Below are positions 9,748 to 46,567 of a DNA stretch of 64,000 nt, piece after piece. The translations under genes were made by a program, and so were the position numbers. The notes beneath the pieces were generated by a model. The model saw only the letters and a program-made list of their open reading frames with translations. It was not told the DNA's origin and made no database searches. The stretch spans positions 520,322-584,321 of the forward strand of contig OY970290.1 in NCBI GenBank assembly GCA_963716205.1. Direction: 5' to 3'. Every line of letters begins with the position of its first letter. The stretch's first letter is position 1. Source of the DNA: an uncultured bacterium (GTDB taxonomy: Bacteria > Patescibacteriota > Minisyncoccia > Phycocordibacterales > GWA1-40-21).

Positions 9748-9838
9748 TGCTTTTTGTTGGGCGGGTGGTGAAATGGTAGACACGCTAGCCTTAGGAGCTA
9801 GTGCCGCAAGGCATGGAGGTTCAAGTCCTCTCCCGCCC
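9748..9838 (+). tRNA. tRNA-Leu(TAG)
   Basis: Acceptor GGGCGGG/CCCGCCC, anticodon stem CTAGC/GCTAG with loop CTTAGGA, long variable arm, T-loop TTCAAGT. Confidence 0.85.
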
Positions 9839-10870
9839 ACAGTTTGAAACTTTTAGCTCATAAAGAGCATCGAAAGGCGCATTTAGCGTATATTTTTCAA
9901 CGTTTTTCCCCTTTACCGTAAAGTTCAAGAATACTTTTCTGATAAAATAATCCAGTTCAGCCATATTTTTGATAGAAGCCAATGTTTTAGCCATATTCTC
10001 CATAATTTCAAGAAATTCAGAATATGTCTTGATATTTATTTTATTCTTTCCAATAAATTTTTCTGCCTCGGCTATAGCTACCTCACTTTCCTTTATTTTT
10101 TCGTCATACCGTTTTAGATCATCCTTGTAATAGGCTTTGACACTCTCCGGCTCATCATGCAAAAGCAAATCCTTAGTTCTCAGCAATTTTTCATTGGATT
10201 GAATTTTAGTTGCTTGAAGAGAAAGAAGTTTTTGTCTTGCCTCATTCACGCGGTTTTTGGATACAATTTTCATCTCCTCGACATAATGATCATAACTTTC
10301 TTTGGAAGAAAAAGGTTTGCTAGCCAAAAATTTATAAATATAGGATGTGATCACATTGGCACGCAAAGATTTTCCACGCCTTGGACAATCATCATTATCG
10401 CAACGATAGTAAAAATATCTGACAATACCATCTTTTGTTTTCTTTGATGTCGCTCCTGCCGTCATTGATTCGCCACATTCACTACAAAAAATAATACCGT
10501 TCATAAGATGGGCTTTTACACCTTCGGCTTTGCGATAAGCCTTTGCCAATCTAATATACTGTGCATCCGAAGACAACTTATTTATCTGCATAAATTCCGG
10601 AACACTGATCATTGGCACAAATCCATACAACTCTATGAGATTCGTGATCTCATTTTTTCCATACTTGAGTATACCCGTATAAACAGGATCTCTGAGCATC
10701 TTATCAATTTTTTGTTTTGTCGCTTTGAAAGGTTTTGGTTTTTCACCGACATTATTGGTGTGAGTATATCCGCTTGCATTTATATAATCCGCGATTTCAT
10801 CGAGTGTTTTGCCTAACAGCCGTGTTTGGTTTCTCAGTAACAACAGGCTTCGGCAAACGCTCAACAACAT
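9821..10870 (-). pseudogene. Large serine recombinase remnant lacking the N-terminal catalytic domain; its 3' end overlaps tRNA-Leu(TAG)
   Basis: Recombinase-domain block (LGKTLDEIADYINASGY...VYTGIL), Zn-ribbon (CSECGESM...YYRCDNDDCPRRGK) and C-terminal coiled coil. No resolvase catalytic Ser region, and nothing resembling one upstream to 11129. Confidence 0.55.
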
Positions 10871-34630: not shown

Positions 34631-36112
34631 TTATTCTATGTGCACTTTCACATTGGTATTTTCATGCTTCAATTTCATGAAAAGAATGGTGAATGAACCG
34701 AGAAAAACGATGATTGCTGACACAAGGAAAACATACGAATACGCATCCACCTGCGCTTTGAGCTCGATGAGTGCGATATATTTTTGAATATCCAGCGGAT
34801 TGAAACTGCGCAAAAAACTGAAACTGTTGATGGAAAGGATATTATGATTAACTCGATCCGTAAGAATCGTGCCGAAGACTGCGATGCCAAATGCTCCGGC
34901 AATATTCCTGCCGAGCGCGAGAATCGATGATGCCACGCCGATCTCTTCCTGCTTGACGATTGAAGCAATGACATTTGTTCTCTGCGCCATACCGAAACCC
35001 ATGCCAAATGCCATGATTGCAAGCGGATAGATCAAATCGAATGCACTCGATCTCGGATCAATAAATGAAAATAAATAAATGCCGAGTGCCGCCACGACCG
35101 TGCTGCCAAAAATCACGTATTTCGCTTTTACTTTGCCGATAAGCGCTCCTCCAATCGGCGCGGCAAGCATCATGGCTGCTGCCATGGGAATAAAAAGATA
35201 ACCAGATTGCGTCGCCGTGTAGCCGAGAAATGTCTGGGCAAAAACCGGCACGAGAAAAAGCGATCCCATCATACCCATAAAGACAATGAAATTGTTGCCA
35301 AGCGTGTTGACGAACGCCGGCATCTTGAAAAAATCGAGATCGACAATCGGCTCTTTTGCTTTTCTTTCTATTACAAGAAATATTTTGGTAAATGCGATAC
35401 ATGCGATATAGCAGATGATGCTTGAAAATGAGAACCATCCCCATGTCGGCCCCTGATCAAGCACGAGCACGAGTGCCGAGAGCGCGATACCAAGCGTAAT
35501 CGAACCCCACCAGTCGAATGACACCGTCTTTTTTTCCGATTTTGATTCATGGACAAACCGCAGTGCCATGAAAAGTCCCAGCAATCCGACGGGAAGATTG
35601 ACGAGAAAAACTGATCGCCATCCAAAGCTATCGATGAGCGGTCCGCCGATGAGCGGTCCGAATACCGCCGCCGCGGCAAATGATGACGACCAAATGCCGA
35701 GTGCCTGCGCACGCTCCTTGCCTTGCGTAAATGTCACCGCGATGATGGCCATGGCAGTAGGATAATCCGCCGATCCTGCGATCGCCTGGATGACGCGAAA
35801 GACGATGAGCGATGAAAGATTCCATGAAAGTCCGGCAAGAACCGATCCAAAAATAAAAATACTGAAACCAAGAATATAGATCTTTTTTCTGCCGAGCGTG
35901 TCGCCAAGCTTGCCCCAGATCGGCACAAAGATTGCATTCGCCAAAATATACGCAGTGGCAATCCATCCCGCAGCGGTGACTGTAATACCAAAATCGCTGA
36001 TGACTTTCGGAATGGCGAGATTGACAATTGTCTGATCCAGCCTGCCGAGAAATGTTCCGATGATGACCGTCAGAAGAACCCACCATTTGAGATTGGATTC
36101 TTTTTCTTCCAT
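34631..36112 (-). CDS. MFS drug:H+ antiporter, DHA2 (EmrB/QacA) family, 14 TMS
   Basis: 493 aa, 14 predicted TM helices, conserved motif A (GKLGDTLGRKKIY). Confidence 0.8.
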   Translation of the reverse strand: MEEKESNLKWWVLLTVIIGTFLGRLDQTIVNLAIPKVISDFGITVTAAGWIATAYILANAIFVPIWGKLGDTLGRKKIYILGFSIFIFGSVLAGLSWNLSSLIVFRVIQAIAGSADYPTAMAIIAVTFTQGKERAQALGIWSSSFAAAAVFGPLIGGPLIDSFGWRSVFLVNLPVGLLGLFMALRFVHESKSEKKTVSFDWWGSITLGIALSALVLVLDQGPTWGWFSFSSIICYIACIAFTKIFLVIERKAKEPIVDLDFFKMPAFVNTLGNNFIVFMGMMGSLFLVPVFAQTFLGYTATQSGYLFIPMAAAMMLAAPIGGALIGKVKAKYVIFGSTVVAALGIYLFSFIDPRSSAFDLIYPLAIMAFGMGFGMAQRTNVIASIVKQEEIGVASSILALGRNIAGAFGIAVFGTILTDRVNHNILSINSFSFLRSFNPLDIQKYIALIELKAQVDAYSYVFLVSAIIVFLGSFTILFMKLKHENTNVKVHIE

Positions 36113-36113
36113 A

Positions 36114-36764
36114 TTAATTATTGGTGTAGACAGTTATTTTTGCCGACATGCCGCTCTTCAATTCCGAATACTTGCTATCATCAAATGAAACTTTGATGTC
36201 AAATTTATTTACCGGGCGCTCATCGGAAATGGAAAATACCACGCCGGTATCTTCGGAAACCGGACTGATCTCGGCAACGACGCCTTCGTATGTTTTTCCC
36301 GGATAGGTATCGACGGTAAATGTTGCGCGGTCGCCGACAGAAATATTTTTCAATCCTTTTGTCTCATCAACCGAACCGATGACCGTCATATCGCTGTTAT
36401 CAACGACTGAAATGACCGTTTGACCGGGTTCATAATATGAGCCGAGCACTTCCGGAGTGCTTGCAATAATGCCGCCATCTTTTGCATAAAGAATTTCCGA
36501 TCCGACGAGTGCAATCTGGCTATTGGGAGCGACAGTATCTCCTTCTTTAACATACAGCGCATTGAGCATGCCCGGAGTTGTCGGCGAAATATCTGCAACT
36601 GGAGCGGAAAGATATGAATTTTCAATAAAAACGGTATCGCGAACCGAGAGCCAATATAAAAATACAAACAGCAGCCCAAAAATAATTACGATTGCAAAAA
36701 CGCTCTGCACCCACGGCGTTTTCAAATGATTCTTTCCTTGTTTTGGTTGTGTTGTTGGTTCCAT
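36114..36764 (-). CDS. Short HlyD/biotin-lipoyl-like membrane-fusion-type protein
   Basis: N-terminal TM. Biotin-lipoyl-like hairpin YVKEGDTVAPNSQIALV, beta-barrel C-terminus. 216 aa. Confidence 0.5.
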   Translation of the reverse strand: MEPTTQPKQGKNHLKTPWVQSVFAIVIIFGLLFVFLYWLSVRDTVFIENSYLSAPVADISPTTPGMLNALYVKEGDTVAPNSQIALVGSEILYAKDGGIIASTPEVLGSYYEPGQTVISVVDNSDMTVIGSVDETKGLKNISVGDRATFTVDTYPGKTYEGVVAEISPVSEDTGVVFSISDERPVNKFDIKVSFDDSKYSELKSGMSAKITVYTNN

Positions 36765-36772
36765 ATGTTTGT

Positions 36773-38077
36773 TTAGTGAATGACGACTTCATCGCCAGCT
36801 GATAATCCGGAAAGAATTTCTGTGTTCGTCGCGTCTGATGCACCGGTCGTAATGACTTTCTGCACTGTGCCGTTTCCTGATTTGACGAGCACATACAATG
36901 TACCGGCATTGTCGATGATCGCGCTGTTTGGAATCATCATTGCGACATTTTTAGAAATGGTTTGCCCAGCGAGATCAATTGCGGGTGCATTCGCAGAAGC
37001 AATTTGTCCAACGGTTATATATACCGCGGTCACGACCCCATCGCCCGGGGCGGCAATAATGCGATTATCGTAAGCTGATTGTGCGATTTGCACTGCGCCT
37101 TGCGCACTTGCCATCTGCGCTTGCGCTGCCGCAATATCCTCCGGTCTCGCTTGTGCGGTTGTAAGTGTCAAACCAGCCTGGCTTTGTGCAACTCCTACTT
37201 CGGCGCTTGAAACTGCCTGCGTTGCGCCAGTAAGTGCTGCGATCTGTCCGGTAATAACACCCTGTGCGGAAATAATATTGCCCTCCGCCGTGCTTTGTAC
37301 AGCCGCATTTCCCGAAACATACGTGGTAAAAAGAGAATTCAGATCAGAAAGATATGTTGAGATGGAATGCAAATTATTTTGTGCATCGTTTGCAAGCGTT
37401 GTCAGATCGCTTGCAGTATTGGTTCCGACAAGTTCGGATTGCCAGCCTGAAAGCATGAGATTGACCGATGCGCGTTCATTTTGGATCTGGTATTCTAAGC
37501 TTTGATTGCTGAAATTCACGCCGGATGTGTTGAGCATCGGAGTGTTTGCATCGGCATTGCTGAAAAAGATGTCGGTGTCGTTGCGCACTGCGTTCGTCCC
37601 GGCTGTCAATGAATCATTTAATGTCTGGATCAGAGTTTCTTCGCTGTGCGCGAGTGCTGTCTGCGCCGCATCAAGCGATGAACTGCTGACCGCAATATCC
37701 GCCGCCGTGGCGCCATTTTCCAATTTATTATAATTAGCAAGTGCAGAAGCGTACGCGGCTTTCGCTTGAGTCAAAGCGCCGAGCGAATTTTCTTGGTCAA
37801 GCGTTGCAAGCACTTCACCGTCTTTCACCATGTCGCCGACTTTGACGAAAACGCCGTCGATCTGACCGGAACCTTGGAAACTCAATGTCAGATTTTGTGC
37901 TGAGGCGCCAGTCGTCGTACCGAGACTCCAAACGTTCTGGATTATTCCCGCTTGCGCTTTTGCAAACTGATACGTCGGCGGGCGAGTGATGATGATTGCG
38001 CCGACAATTCCAATGATAATTGCAACGATGACTGAAATCGCCGCGACATGCTTTGGTTTGTGAATGATGTGAGTCAT
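36773..38077 (-). CDS. HlyD-family efflux adaptor (membrane fusion protein)
   Basis: N-terminal TM. Lipoyl-like VKVGDMVKDGEVLATLDQ, a long Ala/Gln-rich coiled coil, C-terminal MP domain ...LYVLVKSGNGTVQKVITTG. Confidence 0.7.
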   Translation of the reverse strand: MTHIIHKPKHVAAISVIVAIIIGIVGAIIITRPPTYQFAKAQAGIIQNVWSLGTTTGASAQNLTLSFQGSGQIDGVFVKVGDMVKDGEVLATLDQENSLGALTQAKAAYASALANYNKLENGATAADIAVSSSSLDAAQTALAHSEETLIQTLNDSLTAGTNAVRNDTDIFFSNADANTPMLNTSGVNFSNQSLEYQIQNERASVNLMLSGWQSELVGTNTASDLTTLANDAQNNLHSISTYLSDLNSLFTTYVSGNAAVQSTAEGNIISAQGVITGQIAALTGATQAVSSAEVGVAQSQAGLTLTTAQARPEDIAAAQAQMASAQGAVQIAQSAYDNRIIAAPGDGVVTAVYITVGQIASANAPAIDLAGQTISKNVAMMIPNSAIIDNAGTLYVLVKSGNGTVQKVITTGASDATNTEILSGLSAGDEVVIH

Positions 38078-38094
38078 ATATTCTTAGGTTCGTC

Positions 38095-38523
38095 TTGAGT
38101 ATATTGAATGAAGCAAAAAAGTCAATTGGAAAAATCCGCCGTTTCAGATATACTTACCTTATGGATTTGCAACAAAATATTCTTATCTGTTCTGTCTGCC
38201 ACCAGCCGTTATTGCCGAGTTATTATTTCTGTCCGAATTGCGGGACAAAAATAAACCAAGCTCCCCTTTCCACGTCAGTGGCGACACAGATCGGTATCTA
38301 TGCGTTCAGTATTGCCCTGCCGTGGATTCTCTATATCATGATTTCAAAATGGCCGGCGCTGAAATACGCAAAATCAAAAGATCCCAAAACTCGGCAGATC
38401 GGCATTATTGCCATTGCACTTCTGGTACTCTCGACGATTCTCACTATTTATCTCGCCTATGTCTGGACGCAAAGTGCAATCCAATCATCCGTGAACAGCA
38501 TCAATACTGACTTGAGTTTTTAG
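38095..38523 (+). CDS. Zinc-ribbon membrane protein
   Basis: CSVCHQ...CPNCGTKI zinc ribbon followed by two TM helices. An alternative start exists at ATG 38161. Confidence 0.45.
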   Translation: MSILNEAKKSIGKIRRFRYTYLMDLQQNILICSVCHQPLLPSYYFCPNCGTKINQAPLSTSVATQIGIYAFSIALPWILYIMISKWPALKYAKSKDPKTRQIGIIAIALLVLSTILTIYLAYVWTQSAIQSSVNSINTDLSF

Positions 38524-38531
38524 AATTATTT

Positions 38532-38684
38532 TTAGTGAATCAAAATGTAATTCACGAGCTTCGACACCCAAAGATTTTGCGTGCATAAAAGAATGATGCC
38601 GATAATAATAAGTACCAAAAGAAAGATTCGAATCACCCGAATAAGCGGGCTCGGATGATCATTGTTTCTCCAATTGAATGACAT
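38532..38684 (-). CDS. Small hypothetical membrane peptide (50 aa), not in the ORF track
   Basis: Hand-translated: MSFNWRNNDHPSPLIRVIRIFLLVLIIIGIILLCTQNLWVSKLVNYILIH. Lies in a 360-bp gap with no other annotation. Weak RBS. Confidence 0.25.
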   Translation of the reverse strand: MSFNWRNNDHPSPLIRVIRIFLLVLIIIGIILLCTQNLWVSKLVNYILIH

Positions 38685-38695
38685 GGGAATAAAAT

Positions 38696-38821
38696 TTATC
38701 TTCTTTTCTTCAGAAAATTCTGTCTGGTCTTTTTCGCTTCACGAAGCTTGTCGAGTTTTGACTTTTCTTCCCGGACTTTTTCTATCGTTCGTATTTTTTT
38801 GAATGCGTCTTGTCTTCTCAT
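38696..38821 (-). CDS. Small highly basic peptide (41 aa), not in the ORF track
   Basis: Hand-translated: MRRQDAFKKIRTIEKVREEKSKLDKLREAKKTRQNFLKKRR. Its stop is 12 nt before the start of the 50-aa ORF. Weak RBS. Confidence 0.25.
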   Translation of the reverse strand: MRRQDAFKKIRTIEKVREEKSKLDKLREAKKTRQNFLKKRR

Positions 38822-38883
38822 AAGTATAGTATATCTTCTTTCTTCAGATTTTGCCAAGGATAAGAAATTGATATAATACGATT

Positions 38884-39744
38884 ATGAAATTTTTCAAAAC
38901 TATTCTTTTGTTTCTGACTGCAATGCTTTTTATTCCTCAAGCGGCTCTGGCGCAAACAGTGCCGGCACTGCATATTGCCCCGCAAGCCATTTCCCAAGGT
39001 GATCCGGCCATGATTACCGTTTCCGGCACGACAAGCCTGCCCTTCAAAAGCGTGCCGTCTCTGTATTTTTTTCTCTACAAAAATATTCCAACGGCTTTCT
39101 ACGGAATCGATCTCAATCAAAAAACCGGTACAACGACGATCACGGTAACTTTCAAAAACGGATTATTGCTTACTTCTTCGTTTTTTATCGCCCCCCGATT
39201 GCAGCCGCAAGAACCTCTTCCGATACCGGCGCAAATGGGCGGCAATAGCGCGGCAAACCAAACAAAAGTTATATCGAATCTGGAAAAAGATAATGCAAAT
39301 ATCGCGCTTACCTATTCGCGCATGGACAAAGCTTTGTGGACAAGCGCCTTTGCATTTCCCGTTTCTCCTCCGATTATCGTCACCGATCCGTACGGCTATG
39401 GTCGGAACAGCGGCGATTACACAATCACACACAAAGGCGTTGACTTTCGCGCTCCGCCTGGTACGCCAATCTATGCGATCAATCGTGGTGTCGTTCGCGT
39501 GGCGAAAAATTATATTACCTACGGCAATACGGTCATTGTTGATCATGGACTCGGTCTTCTTTCAATGTATATGCATCTGTCACAAATCGATGTTACTGTC
39601 GGCGAGCTTGTGCAAAAAGGAGAGTTCATCGGACTTTCCGGCGAGACTGGATATTCCGAGGGTCCGCATTTGCATCTGACCGTGCGCATCAATGGAATAT
39701 CGATAGATCCGCTTGCATTCTTTGCACTTTTCGGAATCAAATAA
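38884..39744 (+). CDS. M23 family metallopeptidase (LytM domain), secreted
   Basis: Signal peptide. HKGVDFRAPPGTPIYAI ... GETGYSEGPHLHLTV (HxxxD and HxH motifs). Confidence 0.85.
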   Translation: MKFFKTILLFLTAMLFIPQAALAQTVPALHIAPQAISQGDPAMITVSGTTSLPFKSVPSLYFFLYKNIPTAFYGIDLNQKTGTTTITVTFKNGLLLTSSFFIAPRLQPQEPLPIPAQMGGNSAANQTKVISNLEKDNANIALTYSRMDKALWTSAFAFPVSPPIIVTDPYGYGRNSGDYTITHKGVDFRAPPGTPIYAINRGVVRVAKNYITYGNTVIVDHGLGLLSMYMHLSQIDVTVGELVQKGEFIGLSGETGYSEGPHLHLTVRINGISIDPLAFFALFGIK

Positions 39745-39761
39745 AAATATTCAGTTTATTT

Positions 39762-40125
39762 TTATAACTCTCGGAAAAATATCGCCAGTACAATCAAAAG
39801 AAGAACAAAATATAAAATATAGCTTGCTTGAGAATTTTTTTGCGCAGTACTCGTCGCCGTTATCATCGTTCCAACGTTAGTATTTACAATTTTTGTCGAA
39901 GTCGATGTAGTTGAAACAATCGGCAAATTTGGCGGGAGTCCGCCGCTTATTGTCGGAGTTTTTGTTTGAATAAATGATGAAGGTATCGGAGTATTTATCG
40001 CAACACTGTTTTTTTGAACCGATGGTGACGGAGTTTGATTTGAAAAAAGAGCTGCTTCAGGACTTGCAAAAAAAGATGCCTCCGCCGCCCGTAAAACTGA
40101 CGGCGCTGACTTGATTGGGTCGCCA
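39762..40125 (-). other. Open +1-frame continuation of the WINF-repeat gene: Ser/Thr/Pro-rich stalk plus C-terminal hydrophobic anchor, with no start codon of its own
   Basis: A 120-codon frame with no in-frame stop, ending TAA at 39764..39762. It encodes ...SNQTPSPSVQKNSVAINTPIPSS...STTSTSTKIV...ILYFVLLLIVLAIFFREL. It joins the upstream ORF in-frame if the T7 tract (A7 on plus strand, 40068..40074) were T6. Confidence 0.5.
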
Positions 40126-40524
40126 ATCCGTCACCACATTGCAATACGCGCAATCAAACGTGATCGTTCCGGCGAGTGCGCCATTCGCGGTGCCGGAAAA
40201 TTTACCGGTCGCAGGATTTATGGTAACTCCCGAAAAATTAATCCATCCCAAATTTTCACCCCATGCAAATCCGGACAAATTTCCTTCTCCGTCATTGATA
40301 ACACCTCCTTCAGCCGGAGCAAAATTGATCCATCCGGCATTTGCCGACCATGCGTATCCGGAGAGACTATTGCTATTGACAATAACATTTTCAAAATTGA
40401 TATATCCAACATTATTGCTCCATGCATATTCATACGGATCGGAAATTGTTCCTGCTGCAGCAAACGAAATAAAAAGAAAAAAACTTAAAGAACAAATAGA
40501 GATGATAAGCTGTTTTTTAATCAT
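40057..40524 (-). CDS. Secreted WINF-repeat protein whose frame breaks at a T7 tract (see the entry at 39762..40125)
   Basis: Signal peptide. Three ~27-aa repeats (YAWSNNVGYINF, YAWSANAGWINF, FAWGENLGWINF). The stop TGA lies 2 codons after a TTTTTTT run. Confidence 0.6.
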   Translation of the reverse strand: MIKKQLIISICSLSFFLFISFAAAGTISDPYEYAWSNNVGYINFENVIVNSNSLSGYAWSANAGWINFAPAEGGVINDGEGNLSGFAWGENLGWINFSGVTINPATGKFSGTANGALAGTITFDCAYCNVVTDWRPNQVSAVSFTGGGGIFFCKS

Positions 40525-40530
40525 AAAATA

Positions 40531-40905
40531 TTATTGAGTATTGGTCGTCGATGTCGAAATTGGTGCAACATTGATGAGTTTATTGATTGATGGACGATAC
40601 AAGATTGCTTTCATTGAAGTTGTGTAAGCAAACAACACATCTCCATTTTCGGCATCGGCAAAAAACGGCTGATTTTTCAGTTTGCTCGTATCGGAAATGA
40701 CAGCAATGCTCGGTGTTTCATTTGCCGGAAGTTGAATCAGTTTTCCGAGATCAGCAATGAGTTCATTTTCCTCCTTTTGCGCTTTCGCATTTGCATTCAC
40801 CGTCAATGATTCATATTTATGATAAAAATAAAAAGAACCGCATGTGCCTACAACGGCGATACCGGCGAGAATGATGATGAAAAGTTTTTTTGATTTGGAT
40901 TTCAT
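40531..40905 (-). CDS. Small membrane-anchored hypothetical protein
   Basis: N-terminal TM (LFIIILAGIAVVGTCGSF), 124 aa. Immediately downstream of the giant surface-protein gene on the same strand. Confidence 0.45.
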   Translation of the reverse strand: MKSKSKKLFIIILAGIAVVGTCGSFYFYHKYESLTVNANAKAQKEENELIADLGKLIQLPANETPSIAVISDTSKLKNQPFFADAENGDVLFAYTTSMKAILYRPSINKLINVAPISTSTTNTQ

Positions 40906-40915
40906 AATTTATAAT

Positions 40916-43900
40916 TTACGGCGTTGTTGTAGCATCTGTTTGTGACAGGTCTGATGTTGTCGCCATGTCCGCATCGCTGCTTGCATCTTGGTCATCCGTT
41001 GATGATGCATCGCTTACGACCGTCTGATCGTCTGTTGAAGTCGCTGTTTGATCGTCAACTGATGAGGAATCCGTGCTTGATGCCGAATCATCCGTCGAAG
41101 TTGCCGTTATATCCGATGGATCGGAAGAGCTTGCTTCAGTTGTGGTTGCAATTTGCGTCGAATCTCCTGCCGAAGAAGGTGTCTGTATTTCAGTTGGAGC
41201 GAGAGAAGAACTTACATTACTATTGTCCATAATCGCTTGGAGCTGATCGCCGGTCAAACATACTTCAGTTCCGTCTGATTTGGCAACACAAATCTGATTT
41301 GTATAAATTTGTTTCGCAAATATTTCGTCAAAATATCCCCTGATTGCCGTTACTCGAGCTGAAATAAAATTAACAAGAAATTCGGTACTTGAAGCTATTT
41401 CCTGACCGATCACCACATCGGGATCTTGAGCTGTTTCGGATTGAATCGTTGATATGAGCGTGGAAAGACCGTTGTCAGTGCTTGAAGCAGATGGAGAAAT
41501 ATCACCGAGAAGTGCCGATTGTTCTTGAATCGCCTTTATAATTACGGGCGTGATCTGACTATAATCAAGCGCGTATGGCAAACCCTGATCATCGAGAACG
41601 ACTGCTTCCGGAATAAGCGGATAAACTTCTTCCGCAATCAAACCGTTTTGAAGCGCGGTTGTGCCGCTATCATAATAATAATTCACCGGTCGCAAAGCAT
41701 CAATCGTTTCCAGACCCATGGTCAAATCTGTTATGTCATTTTTGAAACGCTCGGATGAAGTATTGCATGCATTTTGCGCAGCACCCTTTACAACTCTATT
41801 GCCAGCCGTAATACATAAAACCGTATTGCCATTGCTTTGAGGACCAGGGTTGCTAAAATCCAATGTTCCCGCTCCAAGCGTCAGTGTGTCCAAAGATGAA
41901 CCGATACCGATAGTATCGGCCGTCGTATTATTCGTCCCAATATTGATTGCATCGCCGGCAGTGCCTGTGCCGATATTTATCGTCTTTGCATTATTTCCCG
42001 TTCCAAGATTCACCGTTCCCGTTGTTCCCGAATCAAGCGTGACGGAACCTGTTGTGCCGGAGGTTATTGAAACATTGCCAGTCGTTCCGGTGAGAAGCGT
42101 CAATCCGCCGGTACCAGAATCCAATGCCAAACTTGTCGCGCCGGTCGTATTTCCCAGAGTAATCGTCTTTGCAATATTGATACCGATATTCATTGCCCCC
42201 GTGCCAGAATCAAGAGTCAGCGCGGAAGCGCCGTTTGTCGAACCGATAACAATCGTCTGCGTAGCTGCCCCATTTCCAATATCAATCGTTCTCGCTTGAG
42301 CGCCAGTGCCAATAGCAATATTTCCCGTACCGGAATCAACCGTAACAGTTGATGTGCCTGTTTGATTTCCGATATTTATTGTTTTTGCCGAAGCGCCGGT
42401 GCCAAGATTGAGTGTTTGAAGTCCTGCAGTTGCAACACCGGAAAGAATATTAACGGTTGAATTCGCGGCGGAGGCGCCAGCTGCAATATTCAAAACTTGA
42501 GCGGAAGTATTTGCGCCATTTCCTACTGAAATAGTATTACCAGCTGTTCCATTTCCAATATTTATTGTTTTAATGCCAGTGCTGCCTCCGCCGAAATTTA
42601 AAATCTGCGCACCAGTCGAGCCACCAACATTGATGGTGCCTGTCATTGCGCCGTTTGAATTGCCGATATCAATCGTGCCGGTCGTCAATGCACCGCCGAT
42701 TGCAATAGATCCGCCGACTTGTGCATTGCCGATTCCGATAACGTTTGCACCGGTGCCGCCAATATTTATTGTTTCGACAGATGCAGCCGCATTGCCAAGA
42801 TTGATCGTTCTCGCAACGGCGTTTGTGCCGATTTCAATATTCCCCGTACCGGCATTTAAAACAAGTGATGTCGCTCCCGTCCCATTTCCAATAGTAATAG
42901 TTTTTGCATTTGTGCTTGTTCCAATGTCTATGTTCCCGGTAGTTCCAGAATCAAGATCCAAATTCCCTGTCGTTCCAGAAACCACCAAAAGAGATGCTGC
43001 AGCAGCAGATGTAAGTGAAAGCGTATTATTTGAAGTAAGTAATGTTGCTCCTGTTCCGGTAAATGTGGCGGATGTGGTTGCAATAGTAAAACGATTGGCG
43101 CCAGCGGTAATAAATGAAAGCGGATTTGCATCGGTCGTACCGAGCGTTGCGGGAGCCCCGAAAGCGTTGCCTGATTGTTCGAAAGCATACGAACTTATAT
43201 TTTGCTGATTGGCGGGCAAAGAAGCTACATGCCATGTTGATGATTGAGTGTTGTAAATAAACTCCGCGATATTATCCGTTGTCAAAATAATACTGCTCCC
43301 TGTCGGAGTTTCAACGCGATTTGCCGCAGTGGATGAACTATCCGTATCGGTAATGGTCAGAGTAAAATTGCTGTCATTCAAAAGATAAAATACCTTGCCG
43401 TCAATGCCTCCGGAAAAACCGGTGAAAGTTGCCGGGCCGTTTCCGTTATAAATAAACCATGAACCCGTTCCCAAATTTACATTATTTTGAGATCCCGTTG
43501 TCATATAGTCAGCTCCTTCCGGAATAAGAAAATTACCCGATATGGAAATATTAGTTGTTGAAGCGCTGCCCAATGTTGTTTGCCCAGATACCGTGAACGT
43601 ATTGGAACCCAAATTTACATTTGCATTTGCTCCAGTATACGGAACATAAAGTGAACTTGATGCAAACGGAATATACGCAAGTGAAGTCGAAGCTGAAAGT
43701 GGAAGATATGCTGCTGCGGCTGATGTGGTTGAAAGATATCCAAGCAAAGTAGTGGTAAAGGTTGAAGTAGAGACGTAATTCGTAAGAGTGGATGTAGTTG
43801 CCGTGACATATCCTGCCGGATTGGTGTTGAGATAATACAAAGTTGAGGAGGCAAATGGAATGTACGCCAATGATGTCGAAGCTGAGAGCGGAAGAAATGT

Positions 43901-46567
43901 ATTATTTACATACGTGGTCGAAGCGTATGTCGATGATGCATATGCCGATGTAATGTAATTAGAAAGTAAATTAGCAGTCGATGTCGCGATGACATTACCC
44001 TTTGTATCGACTGCGAGAAATGAATTTGCAAGATTTGAAATATTTAATGCTTGGGTCGTCGAGGTACCGATGATAGAAAGTGCGGTTGCCGGAGTCGTCG
44101 TGCCGATGCCTATTTTTCCGGCAGTATCAATATTGAACACTCCTGTTTGATTCCAATCCGAGGTCAAAGGACCGAGCGAAACTTGCGTTCCAAATGTCGT
44201 AAGACCGCTCATAAAAGTAAAATTGGCGGAGGCTGAAAGCTGAACCCACTCGGACAAAGAAGAAGAATAGGTGAAAGATACATCGTGATAAAAAGCGTTT
44301 GTATTGCTTACAAATACCGCGTAATTATTTACGGGAGCTGCAAATGTATAGGTAAAAGCTCCCGCTGAACCTCCGGTAATTTCAACGATGTAATTCTTTT
44401 TTCCCGTCATTGAGCCGGATGGTGTTGATGTTGATGAAAAATCAATACCCATATAATCGCCGATAGCCAAAGATTTGATCTTCACCCAAGAAGGGCTTTG
44501 GTATTGGACCAGATCTCCCGCGGCAAAGCTTGACCATGCGCCGGTATTGCCTCCGGTATTTATTATGTAGGCATCATCATTATTTGGTGAAGCAATCGGA
44601 GCACTCGCATCACCGATTACATTTATGACTTGCACCGGATTCTGCCAGATTAATCCGGTGGCAACATTATCCACGTATGTTTTTACGGCATTCTGCGTCG
44701 GATACAAAATATCCGAAGTTCCAAGCGTAGTACTTGTGGATTTATCGCTTAAAACTTCAAAGGTAGATGATGCGTATGTATAAGGAACATAATTATTTGT
44801 CAGTGTTGAAGTGGAAACATAGTTTGAAGCAGCCTGAGCAAGCGAAAGAAATGTTGATGAGGCATAGGTAAATGTCGGAAAAGTATTATTCACATATGTT
44901 GTTGAAGCATACGTCGAGGAAGCGTATGCGAATGTGACGTAATTGGAAAGTAAATTTGCGGTCGATGTCGCGATGACATTGCCACTTGCATCAACAGCGA
45001 GGAAATTGTTGACAAGACCGTTGCCGAGGGAAAGCCGGCTGATTGATGTGGTGGCAAGGGTTGAGATGCCAGAAACATTAAGTGCCCCGAGCGTGCCGAG
45101 CGATGTGAGAGATGAATTCAAAATTCCGGATCCCAATGTATTTGAGGTTAATACATCATTACCGGTAATTTGATATTTTGTTTGAGTATTGACGATGCCA
45201 TTTGTGGTAGTTGAAAGACCGTCGACTGAAATAGCGTTGGCTGCCGTGAGATTTGTTGCGGAAACATTGCCGAGCGTTACAAGCCCGACAAGATTTATTC
45301 CTCCTGTTCCTGAATTAATATTTATTGCCGTCCCTCCCGTCCCATTGCCTATCGTAATCGTCTTTGCATTCGTGCTTGAACCGATAGAAATATTTCCTGT
45401 TGTTCCGGAATCAAGATTGAGATTTCCCGTAGTGCCGGAAGTTATATCAAGATCGGATGCAGCAGCAGATGTAAGTGAAAGCGTATTATTTGAAGTAAGT
45501 AATGTTGCTCCTGTTCCGGTAAATGTGGCGGATGTGGTTGCAATAGTAAAACGATTGGCGCCAGCGGTAATAAATGAAAGCGGATTTGCATCGGTCGTAC
45601 CGAGCGTTGCGGGAGCCCCGAAAGCATTGCCACCCTGTTCATAAGCGTATCCTGCTATAGTTACGGCAGTTGCCGTTAATTCCGTTACTTGCCATTTGGC
45701 GGCAGGTCCGTCATATTGAAAATCAATGGAAACATTCGGAGGGACCGTCAGCGTGCCGCCAGTTGAAGTAATAATACGATCTGCAGCGACTGAATTGGCA
45801 TCCTGATCAGTAAAAAATATATTTGAAGTGGAATGATTTGAAACTCGTTTTTGTTCTCCATCAACTCCAGCCGCCATGCCGGTGAATGTTGCCGGGGCCG
45901 ATCCCGCATAATCAGTAACGGAACCGTATCCGAAATATACATTATTTTGCGTTCCCGTCGTGACATAATCCGGAGTTTTAGTGGTAACAAACGGTCCCGG
46001 AAGCGTGCTCGTGCCTGCCACAGTAAGATTGCCGCTCGCGGAAATATCGCCGGTATTATCAAAATTGATATCGCCGAGAGTTCCGTGAAAATCAAGTGAA
46101 TTTCCGTTGAAAGAAAGTGTTCTGTTTCCGGAAAGCGTCAGATCCGAATTGCCGATGTCCGGACTTGAACCGGTATTCCACACCGGAGTTCCGCTCGCAG
46201 AGACTGTCAGCACCTGACCGCTTGTTCCGATTCCGAGATTTGCAAGCGTTCCCGGACTGAGAGCATAAAGAATATCTCCGGGATTATACAATGAAAGACC
46301 GGTACCTCCTTCAGAAGGCGCAAGCGCGGTTGTAAGTCCGGAGAGAGATGTTATATCAGAATTCGCACCCGATGCCGCCCCTGTCGATGTGGCAATACCG
46401 CATGTTGACAAGCTATCAGTCGGGGGGCAATCCGGCTCAAGCGTCACGCCGGGCGCATAAAGCGTTGCGTAGACATTTTGTGCAAAAAGAAAAAGAGATG
46501 CAATGACAAAACAGAAGATAAATATCTTTTTATGTTCTTTTTTGAAGCTGTCTCGTAAATTGCTCAT
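40916..46567 (-). CDS. Giant (1883 aa) secreted tail-fibre-like surface protein with a C-terminal S74-type intramolecular chaperone (autoproteolytic) domain and an acidic Ser/Thr/Asp tail
   Basis: Signal peptide. Long Gly/Thr/Ser/Asn-rich beta-repeat region with an internally duplicated ~70-aa block. C-terminal block ...NTSSERFKNDITDLTMGLETIDALRPVNYYYD...GLIAEEV matches the S74 intramolecular-chaperone fold of phage tail spikes/endosialidases. Confidence 0.8.
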   Translation of the reverse strand: MSNLRDSFKKEHKKIFIFCFVIASLFLFAQNVYATLYAPGVTLEPDCPPTDSLSTCGIATSTGAASGANSDITSLSGLTTALAPSEGGTGLSLYNPGDILYALSPGTLANLGIGTSGQVLTVSASGTPVWNTGSSPDIGNSDLTLSGNRTLSFNGNSLDFHGTLGDINFDNTGDISASGNLTVAGTSTLPGPFVTTKTPDYVTTGTQNNVYFGYGSVTDYAGSAPATFTGMAAGVDGEQKRVSNHSTSNIFFTDQDANSVAADRIITSTGGTLTVPPNVSIDFQYDGPAAKWQVTELTATAVTIAGYAYEQGGNAFGAPATLGTTDANPLSFITAGANRFTIATTSATFTGTGATLLTSNNTLSLTSAAASDLDITSGTTGNLNLDSGTTGNISIGSSTNAKTITIGNGTGGTAININSGTGGINLVGLVTLGNVSATNLTAANAISVDGLSTTTNGIVNTQTKYQITGNDVLTSNTLGSGILNSSLTSLGTLGALNVSGISTLATTSISRLSLGNGLVNNFLAVDASGNVIATSTANLLSNYVTFAYASSTYASTTYVNNTFPTFTYASSTFLSLAQAASNYVSTSTLTNNYVPYTYASSTFEVLSDKSTSTTLGTSDILYPTQNAVKTYVDNVATGLIWQNPVQVINVIGDASAPIASPNNDDAYIINTGGNTGAWSSFAAGDLVQYQSPSWVKIKSLAIGDYMGIDFSSTSTPSGSMTGKKNYIVEITGGSAGAFTYTFAAPVNNYAVFVSNTNAFYHDVSFTYSSSLSEWVQLSASANFTFMSGLTTFGTQVSLGPLTSDWNQTGVFNIDTAGKIGIGTTTPATALSIIGTSTTQALNISNLANSFLAVDTKGNVIATSTANLLSNYITSAYASSTYASTTYVNNTFLPLSASTSLAYIPFASSTLYYLNTNPAGYVTATTSTLTNYVSTSTFTTTLLGYLSTTSAAAAYLPLSASTSLAYIPFASSSLYVPYTGANANVNLGSNTFTVSGQTTLGSASTTNISISGNFLIPEGADYMTTGSQNNVNLGTGSWFIYNGNGPATFTGFSGGIDGKVFYLLNDSNFTLTITDTDSSSTAANRVETPTGSSIILTTDNIAEFIYNTQSSTWHVASLPANQQNISSYAFEQSGNAFGAPATLGTTDANPLSFITAGANRFTIATTSATFTGTGATLLTSNNTLSLTSAAAASLLVVSGTTGNLDLDSGTTGNIDIGTSTNAKTITIGNGTGATSLVLNAGTGNIEIGTNAVARTINLGNAAASVETINIGGTGANVIGIGNAQVGGSIAIGGALTTGTIDIGNSNGAMTGTINVGGSTGAQILNFGGGSTGIKTINIGNGTAGNTISVGNGANTSAQVLNIAAGASAANSTVNILSGVATAGLQTLNLGTGASAKTINIGNQTGTSTVTVDSGTGNIAIGTGAQARTIDIGNGAATQTIVIGSTNGASALTLDSGTGAMNIGINIAKTITLGNTTGATSLALDSGTGGLTLLTGTTGNVSITSGTTGSVTLDSGTTGTVNLGTGNNAKTINIGTGTAGDAINIGTNNTTADTIGIGSSLDTLTLGAGTLDFSNPGPQSNGNTVLCITAGNRVVKGAAQNACNTSSERFKNDITDLTMGLETIDALRPVNYYYDSGTTALQNGLIAEEVYPLIPEAVVLDDQGLPYALDYSQITPVIIKAIQEQSALLGDISPSASSTDNGLSTLISTIQSETAQDPDVVIGQEIASSTEFLVNFISARVTAIRGYFDEIFAKQIYTNQICVAKSDGTEVCLTGDQLQAIMDNSNVSSSLAPTEIQTPSSAGDSTQIATTTEASSSDPSDITATSTDDSASSTDSSSVDDQTATSTDDQTVVSDASSTDDQDASSDADMATTSDLSQTDATTTP
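42999..43160. repeat. Intragenic direct repeat, copy A (~160 bp, one mismatch versus copy B at 45459..45620)
   Basis: Direct comparison of the sequence. Flanks are diverged but homologous, so this is a duplicated domain unit. Confidence 0.85.
45459..45620. repeat. Intragenic direct repeat, copy B
   Basis: Identical to 42999..43160 except one G/A difference near the 3' end. Confidence 0.85.

Follow-up and report, generated by a model that had tools for sequence, protein, structure and literature searches.

Surface-protein alleles in which a frameshift removes the anchor are well known from inlA of Listeria monocytogenes and from vaa and vmp of Mycoplasma hominis. In M. hominis, vaa was observed with tract lengths of 7, 8 and 9 and switches at 1e-3 to 1e-4, while a tract in the 3' part of vmp-2, whose 3' modules are variable, removes about 500 bp of C-terminal coding sequence (PMC524362). 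The 5' A7/A6 tract of inlA is polymorphic in many isolates, with rates of 4e-8 to 5e-7 (PMC2831843). In the Candidate Phyla Radiation (CPR), a Gracilibacteria genome contains a hypervariable surface-gene locus that consists of a long array of 9-mer repeats and fragments assemblies (Sieber et al. 2019, PMC6851277). Here we analyzed a stretch of 64,000 nucleotides (nt) of contig OY970290.1 from an uncultured bacterium of the Patescibacteriota (the window, to which all coordinates refer). A gene on its minus strand encodes a secreted protein of 155 amino acids (aa) with WINF repeats, and its reading frame breaks off beside a run of seven T (T7), leaving a linker and a hydrophobic anchor in the +1 frame. 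A host-attached life is assumed for the CPR/Patescibacteria, whose means of surface variation are very little known.

A preliminary description of this locus proposed that slippage in T7 switches the protein between anchored and released forms. We found that both frame states exist in near-identical strains, and that the in-frame allele keeps T7 and lacks a G, so the lesion separating the two states is located outside the T tract. On balance, the window most probably carries a real, recent, strain-polymorphic frameshift allele that removes the anchor.

Frame break and near-identical contigs

The 155-aa product consists of a signal peptide followed by three G(Y/F)AW(S/G)xNxGWINF units. At the break the coding strand reads ...ACG GGC GGC GGA GGC ATC TTT TTT TGC AAG TCC TGA. 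Re-reading of sequence and translation confirmed that the open reading frame (ORF) terminates two codons past T7, with its stop at 40057..40059. The gene comprises the following features:

40057..40524, minus strand: present 155-aa ORF, read from the sequence, in which a signal peptide precedes the N-terminal barrel domain and a tail of 19 aa (…PNQVSAVSFTGGGGIFFCKS, then stop)
40453..40524, minus strand: Sec-type signal peptide, MIKKQLIISICSLSFFLFISFAAA with a putative cleavage site before G; read from the sequence, helical in the model and conserved in the family alignment
40117..40452, minus strand: conserved N-terminal domain (N-domain), residues 25-136, ending in TDWR; predicted 8-stranded beta-barrel of 'WINF' hairpins
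40068..40074, minus strand: T7 tract (A7 on the plus strand) adjoining the frame break; equal length in all three assemblies that cover it
39762..40067, minus strand: +1-frame continuation with Ser/Thr/Pro-rich linker and anchor, 101 codons and a stop; untranslated in the present allele unless by slippage
39774..39821, minus strand: C-terminal hydrophobic helix YILYFVLLLIVLAIFF, followed by REL and the stop; aligns with the transmembrane (TM) helix of the relative P0033

Starting at 40130, 122 codons of the +1 frame can be read without interruption until its stop at 39762..39764. Of these, 101 are located past T7 (about 102 had been reported) and lead into the hydrophobic anchor. As noted previously, this frame lacks a start codon of its own, since none is found near its 5' end and the earliest is a TTG at 39926. 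Deletion of one T fuses both parts into a product of 253 aa, close to the earlier figure of about 255. The fused product displays ...GGGGIFFASPEAALF... at the linker junction, where the 155-aa form ends in ...IFFCKS, and its C-terminal end is ...SYILYFVLLLIVLAIFFREL. A version with T8 would only yield a 24-aa out-of-frame tail up to the next stop codon. The identical 155-aa product is on record as P0121, encoded on an NCBI/ENA contig of 681,747 bp that is the source contig itself.

Based on the codon usage of the window, the 101-codon downstream frame scored 0.18 per codon, compared with 0.38 +/- 0.12 in frame and -0.65 +/- 0.22 off frame for 101-codon windows of the window's genes. The frame is therefore coding-like, as expected of a low-complexity linker. 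No further disabling lesion was detected past the break, with 0 stops over the 101 codons. This stop-free, coding-like stretch makes a decaying pseudogene compatible only with a recent event. The frame could be restored by any 1-nt deletion within 40060-40130, and thus the closeness of the break to T7 is not itself remarkable.

Three assemblies cover the frame break, namely the window and two public contigs. The first contig (L001; Logan assembly of run ERR11563597, 8232 bp) matched window positions 34796..43027. The second (L063; NCBI GCA_052915985.1, JBLFLA010489278.1, 1291 bp) matched positions 41334..40043 and was found by an exact look-up of the neighboring 124-aa protein, which gave five public contigs. 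In exact look-ups of four neighboring products (the 124-aa protein, M23, Zn-ribbon and MFP), only two contigs reached the junction. L001 was 99.976% identical to the window across 8232 nt without gaps and retained both T7 and the stop. It differed at two positions only, G>A at 40082 and 40079, which change GG into ED.

L063 displayed the other frame state. It reads ...GGC GGC GGA GCT TCT TTT TTT GCA AGT CCG GAA GCA GCT CTT..., corresponding to ...GGGASFFASPEAALF, and is in frame with T7 kept and one G of 40079/40080 missing. The best alignment to the window, with one gap, gave two substitutions in addition, A>T at 40077 and T>G at 40059; an alignment to a hypothetical T6 allele scored worse. 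Neither substitution changes an amino acid once the frame is restored (GCA>GCT, Ala; CCT>CCG, Pro). The frameshifted state was therefore present in two of the three assemblies (window and L001) and the in-frame state in one, whereas T7 was present in all of them. Another contig (L066), from a different run, carried four scattered differences, three of them synonymous and one S53T, which are ordinary strain variation. A DNA pattern for the exact allele (T6 to T9) had 0 matches in the JGI metagenomes.

The differences of both contigs from the window fell within a patch of 24 nt:

40059..40082, minus strand: variation hotspot at the domain/linker boundary, containing all differences of L001 (8232 nt) and L063 (1291 nt)
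40078..40083, minus strand: GGAGGC, holding a Shine-Dalgarno-like GGAGG 4 nt 5' of T7; GAAGAC in L001 and GGAGC in L063

The patch reads GGAGGCATC-T7 in the window and GAAGACATC-T7 in L001. Three haplotypes were thus found in three assemblies, with no other variation across 8.2 kb (L001) and 1.3 kb (L063). Counting the changes of each contig as one event, we calculated a chance of about 1.5e-4 that both land in a 40-nt window. The patch could be a mosaic boundary, a site of recurrent frame-breaking and frame-restoring mutation, or a read-error hotspot at a GGC-rich motif before a homopolymer. Two other candidate processes were rejected. A diversity-generating retroelement was discarded because a second copy of 39762..40200 that could serve as template repeat is absent from the 64 kb, and no reverse transcriptase was found among the 26 window ORFs scanned. 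Gene conversion by a nearby donor was discarded because the window contains no sequence from which the variant patches could have been copied.

Protein family and C-terminal anchors

With the fused sequence as query, 837 protein matches were obtained, nearly all from Patescibacteria/CPR such as Taylorbacteria, Nomurabacteria, Paceibacterota, Magasanikbacteria and others. The relatives shared 60-68% identity across the first ~135 residues, with E-values of 1e-45 to 1e-56 in other organisms among the matches listed, and the family alignment contained 17 invariant columns. Like its relatives, for example P0005 of Candidatus Taylorbacteria (A3D52_02555), the window protein has a signal peptide and an N-domain of ~110 aa ending in TDWR, followed by a Gly run. 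No Pfam or NCBIfam model covers this domain.

Past TDWR and the Gly run, the relatives diverge completely. Some C-termini are dockerins, while P0009, P0026, P0033 and P0048 carry a linker, a C-terminal TM helix and a basic tail, and P0002, P0019, P0052 and P0056 an extra domain and a TM helix. Nearly all relatives have 50-700 residues beyond the N-domain, often with a membrane anchor or a dockerin at the C-terminus, and in each of 60 family loci taken from species genomes the ORF extends at least 49 aa, usually 100-700 aa, beyond TDWR. The relatives are single ORFs of 200-860 aa, whereas the window allele ends with 19 aa beyond the domain, and no sequence relative was found for its linker and anchor.

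The fused window protein and P0033, an intact relative of 259 aa, could be aligned over their full lengths, with the two TM helices coinciding. This agrees with the earlier proposal that the two pieces are one gene, since intact relatives of 250-260 aa likewise have a C-terminal TM helix behind a linker. Because relatives continue past the N-domain and P0033 matches over its whole length, the alignments indicate that the fused anchored form is the normal architecture of the gene and the 155-aa form the exception. An anchoring C-terminus (TM helix or dockerin) within the same ORF is absent from the window allele, where it is found only in the +1 frame, and is in frame in L063 as far as this contig reads.

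The GTDB species genomes contained no close orthologue; of the best matches, one was restricted to the N-domain (residues 1-148, 66% identity) and another extended across residues 2-211 at 47% identity. A 114-aa C-terminal query had 0 matches in a set of 5.8 billion proteins, the C-terminal half gave only one unrelated weak match in the JGI metagenomes, and a search of IMG/VR with a degenerate anchor gave 0 matches.

One family member from another organism, P0086 (144 aa, ENA), ends within the N-domain with …TFDCGFCDVHFGCHAYMLT in place of …CDVxTDWR. It may be another truncated or frameshifted member, or the product of a contig end.

Explanations of the frame break

According to the explanation that we favor, the normal gene product would be a membrane-anchored surface protein with signal peptide, 8-stranded beta-barrel, Ser/Thr/Pro linker and C-terminal TM helix. 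A one-base insertion within a stretch of about 25 nt at the barrel/linker boundary would have shifted the frame in the window strain and in a near-identical strain. Relative to L063, the only in-frame allele seen, the lesion consists of one additional G in GGAG(G)C, at a distance of 5-6 nt on the 5' side of T7. T7 itself would be a bystander, or at most one of several nearby spots where a compensating indel could arise. Translation would then halt 19 residues past the barrel with loss of linker and anchor, and the truncated barrel would either be released without an anchor or be non-functional. The untranslated 3' part would still be intact because the event was recent. We estimate that roughly 5% divergence would leave a neutral frame of 101 codons still open in about half of all cases, and the strains compared here differ by 0.02-0.4%. 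Of the alternatives named in the preliminary description, a recent pseudogenising mutation comes closest, as a recent frameshift fits best.

Several observations weigh against this explanation. The clustering of differences within 24 nt is not predicted by a single random frameshift and points to a local process. The evidence from the three assemblies is at assembly level only, and the three differences of L063 all fall within the final 46 nt of a short contig, a position at which assembly is most error-prone. A complete fused allele of this species was not on record in the protein searches. The reverse direction is also possible, in which a T6 ancestor became T7 and a G was then lost in compensation.

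A doubtful alternative is that the break marks a mosaic or recombination boundary. A variable C-terminal stalk and anchor module would be exchanged, or would diverge faster than the N-domain, and the cluster of differences would be the start of the divergent segment with the frameshift as by-product of an imprecise junction. The highly variable C-termini (dockerin, TM anchor, extra domains) on the same N-domain are consistent with this view, and so are the C-terminal part without a relative anywhere searched and the course of L063, which has 0 differences in 1245 nt and then 3 in 30 nt before the contig ends. However, L001 carries both of its substitutions at this same spot although it is identical to the window throughout the 3' part and for 5 kb farther, and the window offers no donor for the variant patches.

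The 24-nt patch GGAGGCATC-T7 could itself be a genuine anchored/released switch region, either as hypermutable site or as U7 recoding site, which we regard as unlikely. In the former version, frame-breaking and frame-restoring changes would recur locally. In the latter, slippage on U7, aided by GGAGG and the rare UGC, would give both isoforms from one allele.

Equally improbable in our judgment is the homopolymer contingency locus of the preliminary description, in which slipped-strand mispairing between T7 and T6 would flip the protein reversibly, and at a high rate, between anchored and released forms. Loss of one T from T7 does restore the frame: the 253-aa anchored form results from T6, whereas T7 and T8 both lead to truncation. 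The gene lies in a surface-protein module and itself codes for a surface protein, both frame states occur in nature, and tracts of 7-9 A phase-vary in vaa and vmp of M. hominis (PMC524362). In addition, the gene (39762..40524) carries four A/T7 runs in 763 nt (40477-83, 40068-74, 40009-15 and 39835-41), compared with 0.75 expected from the density in the window (Poisson estimate, P about 0.007).

Against the contingency locus, T7 was found in all three assemblies and the in-frame allele differs from the window elsewhere, by loss of a G. The tract is also ordinary in length. The window contains 63 A/T runs of at least 7 (57 of length 7, 6 of length 8 and none longer), fewer than the ~102 predicted by a second-order Markov model, so that T7 is one among 57 tracts of its length. 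Each gene has about one such tract on average; therefore a frame break beside one is not evidence of phase variation, and a high slippage rate would endanger every gene. No change in tract length was detected in 17 tract-by-assembly comparisons (L001 shares eight tracts with the window over 8.2 kb, and the short contigs L063-L066 share two or three each). Neither an outlier length nor a length differing between strains, both characteristic of contingency loci, was thus found with three assemblies at the site. In 30 family loci there was no conserved homopolymer at the junction; a run of at least 6 within 120 nt past TDWR occurred in two of them, neither a T run. In Listeria, a repair-proficient bacterium, A7 changes to A6 at only ~4e-8 (PMC2831843). 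A scan of 26 window ORFs identified no mismatch-repair genes. The interpretation as anchored and released forms therefore stands in part: there is one gene, normally anchored, whose frame is polymorphic between strains, but a switch by slippage in the T tract is not supported.

A sequencing or assembly error at the GGC-rich motif before the homopolymer, either as frameshift in the window or as in-frame state in L063, is very unlikely. Homopolymers and GGC motifs are known sequencing-error contexts, and the differences of L063 are located at a contig end. However, the second assembly L001 has the same break, which argues against the homopolymer error that had been considered initially, and the two frameshifted assemblies differ at two nearby bases and are thus not copies of each other. 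Both substitutions of L063 fall on four-fold degenerate third positions, a pattern that random errors would produce about 3% of the time by a rough estimate. Among all A/T runs of at least 6 and G/C runs of at least 5 in the 64 kb, no other gene was broken at a homopolymer, and four other split candidates were ordinary gene junctions with ATG starts or antisense frames; a pervasive homopolymer error problem is thereby excluded.

The least probable explanation, to which we give very little credence, is recoding of the T7 allele into both products by transcriptional slippage on U7 or by +1 ribosomal frameshifting, in which tRNA-Phe would slip from UUU to UUU while the rare UGC occupies the A site and GGAGG lies upstream. 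UUU UUU U would allow the P-site codon to re-pair perfectly, UGC is the ninth rarest codon (4.5 per 1000), the arrangement with GGAGG is unique among the long genes of the window and the +1 frame is intact, but a split arrangement was found in 0 of 60 loci and in none of the protein matches listed, there was no notable, possibly stimulatory RNA structure around the site (z = -0.74), seven U are short for efficient transcriptional slippage, and GGAGG represents two Gly codons of the family Gly run and is lost in L001, which is itself frameshifted. The GGAGG lies 4 nt upstream of T7 and 7 nt from the second Phe codon, differing from the 3 nt of prfB, and any role of it in frameshifting is speculative. 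A chance control based on open alternative frames after long ORFs was unusable, as adjacent genes dominated the result.

Gene neighborhood and comparison with known systems

The neighboring genes were identified as follows:

40531..40905, minus strand: upstream 124-aa protein that carries a TM helix at its N-terminus and whose gene is syntenic with the barrel gene
40916..46567, minus strand: first gene of the conserved module, coding for a fibre-like protein of 1883 aa that has a Peptidase_S74 intramolecular-chaperone domain
38884..39744, plus strand: convergent M23 peptidase gene, ending 17 nt from the +1-frame stop

The Peptidase_S74 domain supports the earlier assignment of the 1883-aa neighbor as tail-fibre-like protein in a surface-protein locus. 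The giant S74 fibre-like protein, the ~124-aa TM protein and the WINF-barrel protein follow one another on one strand, and this conserved module was also observed in relatives (loci L002, L004, L005, L007, L040, L043 and L048). Among the 60 loci, the 124-aa partner was found in 11 and S74-type similarity in 18. The neighborhood is thus another feature shared with the Patescibacteria WINF-barrel family. This family is large and unnamed; for its members an 8-stranded, hemophilin-like barrel is predicted, and they are encoded together with an S74 fibre protein in a conserved module. No terminator was found between the 0-frame and +1-frame stops, a result that is uninformative.

The 1883-aa gene contains an internal duplication (45330..45487 versus 42870..43027, ~76% nucleotide identity). 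The public contigs L063-L066 all start in its Ser/Thr/Asp-rich 3' end (41145..41404), two of them, from different sources, at the identical base 41404, which suggests an assembly-breaking repeat or a variable stretch in this gene. Elsewhere in the window, a 349-aa ORF (9821..10870, minus strand) has Recombinase and Zn_ribbon_recom domains without the Resolvase catalytic domain and abuts a tRNA-Leu (9759..9840) in a cluster of four tRNAs. It may be the remnant of an integrated element.

If anchoring of the barrel does switch between close strains, it would provide a handle on host attachment or phage evasion in the CPR. A patch switch or recoding, if true, would be the first documented on/off or dual-product mechanism for a surface protein of Patescibacteria. 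The locus also demonstrates that comparison with one near-identical strain can relocate a lesion.

The allele described here is a new instance of an anchor-removing frameshift in a little-studied phylum and involves no new mechanism. Truncated InlA without its C-terminal anchor is released. The window gene resembles inlA in its strain-polymorphic frameshift or premature-stop alleles of a surface protein and in a 7-nt A tract. However, InlA is anchored through LPXTG and sortase and the window protein would be anchored through a TM helix, and it is for inlA that tract polymorphism and rates are documented. With vaa and vmp-2/vmp-3 of M. hominis it shares a short A/T homopolymer in a surface-protein gene of a small genome, where a one-base change truncates the product. 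The length of the vaa tract varies, while T7 is present in all three assemblies here and the in-frame allele differs at another base.

The slippery run, the upstream Shine-Dalgarno-like GGAGG and the 0-frame stop soon after are reminiscent of prfB-type +1 frameshifting and of slippage on A/T runs. At the present locus, relatives do not share the split, a sense codon occupies the A site, and GGAGG lies at a distance of 4 nt (or 7 nt). For local hypervariation of a surface gene in the CPR, a single precedent has been published, and it differs in type: the Gracilibacteria repeat gene also shows extreme local variation within one surface-protein gene (PMC6851277), whereas the window locus displays a 24-nt patch with few substitutions and one indel.
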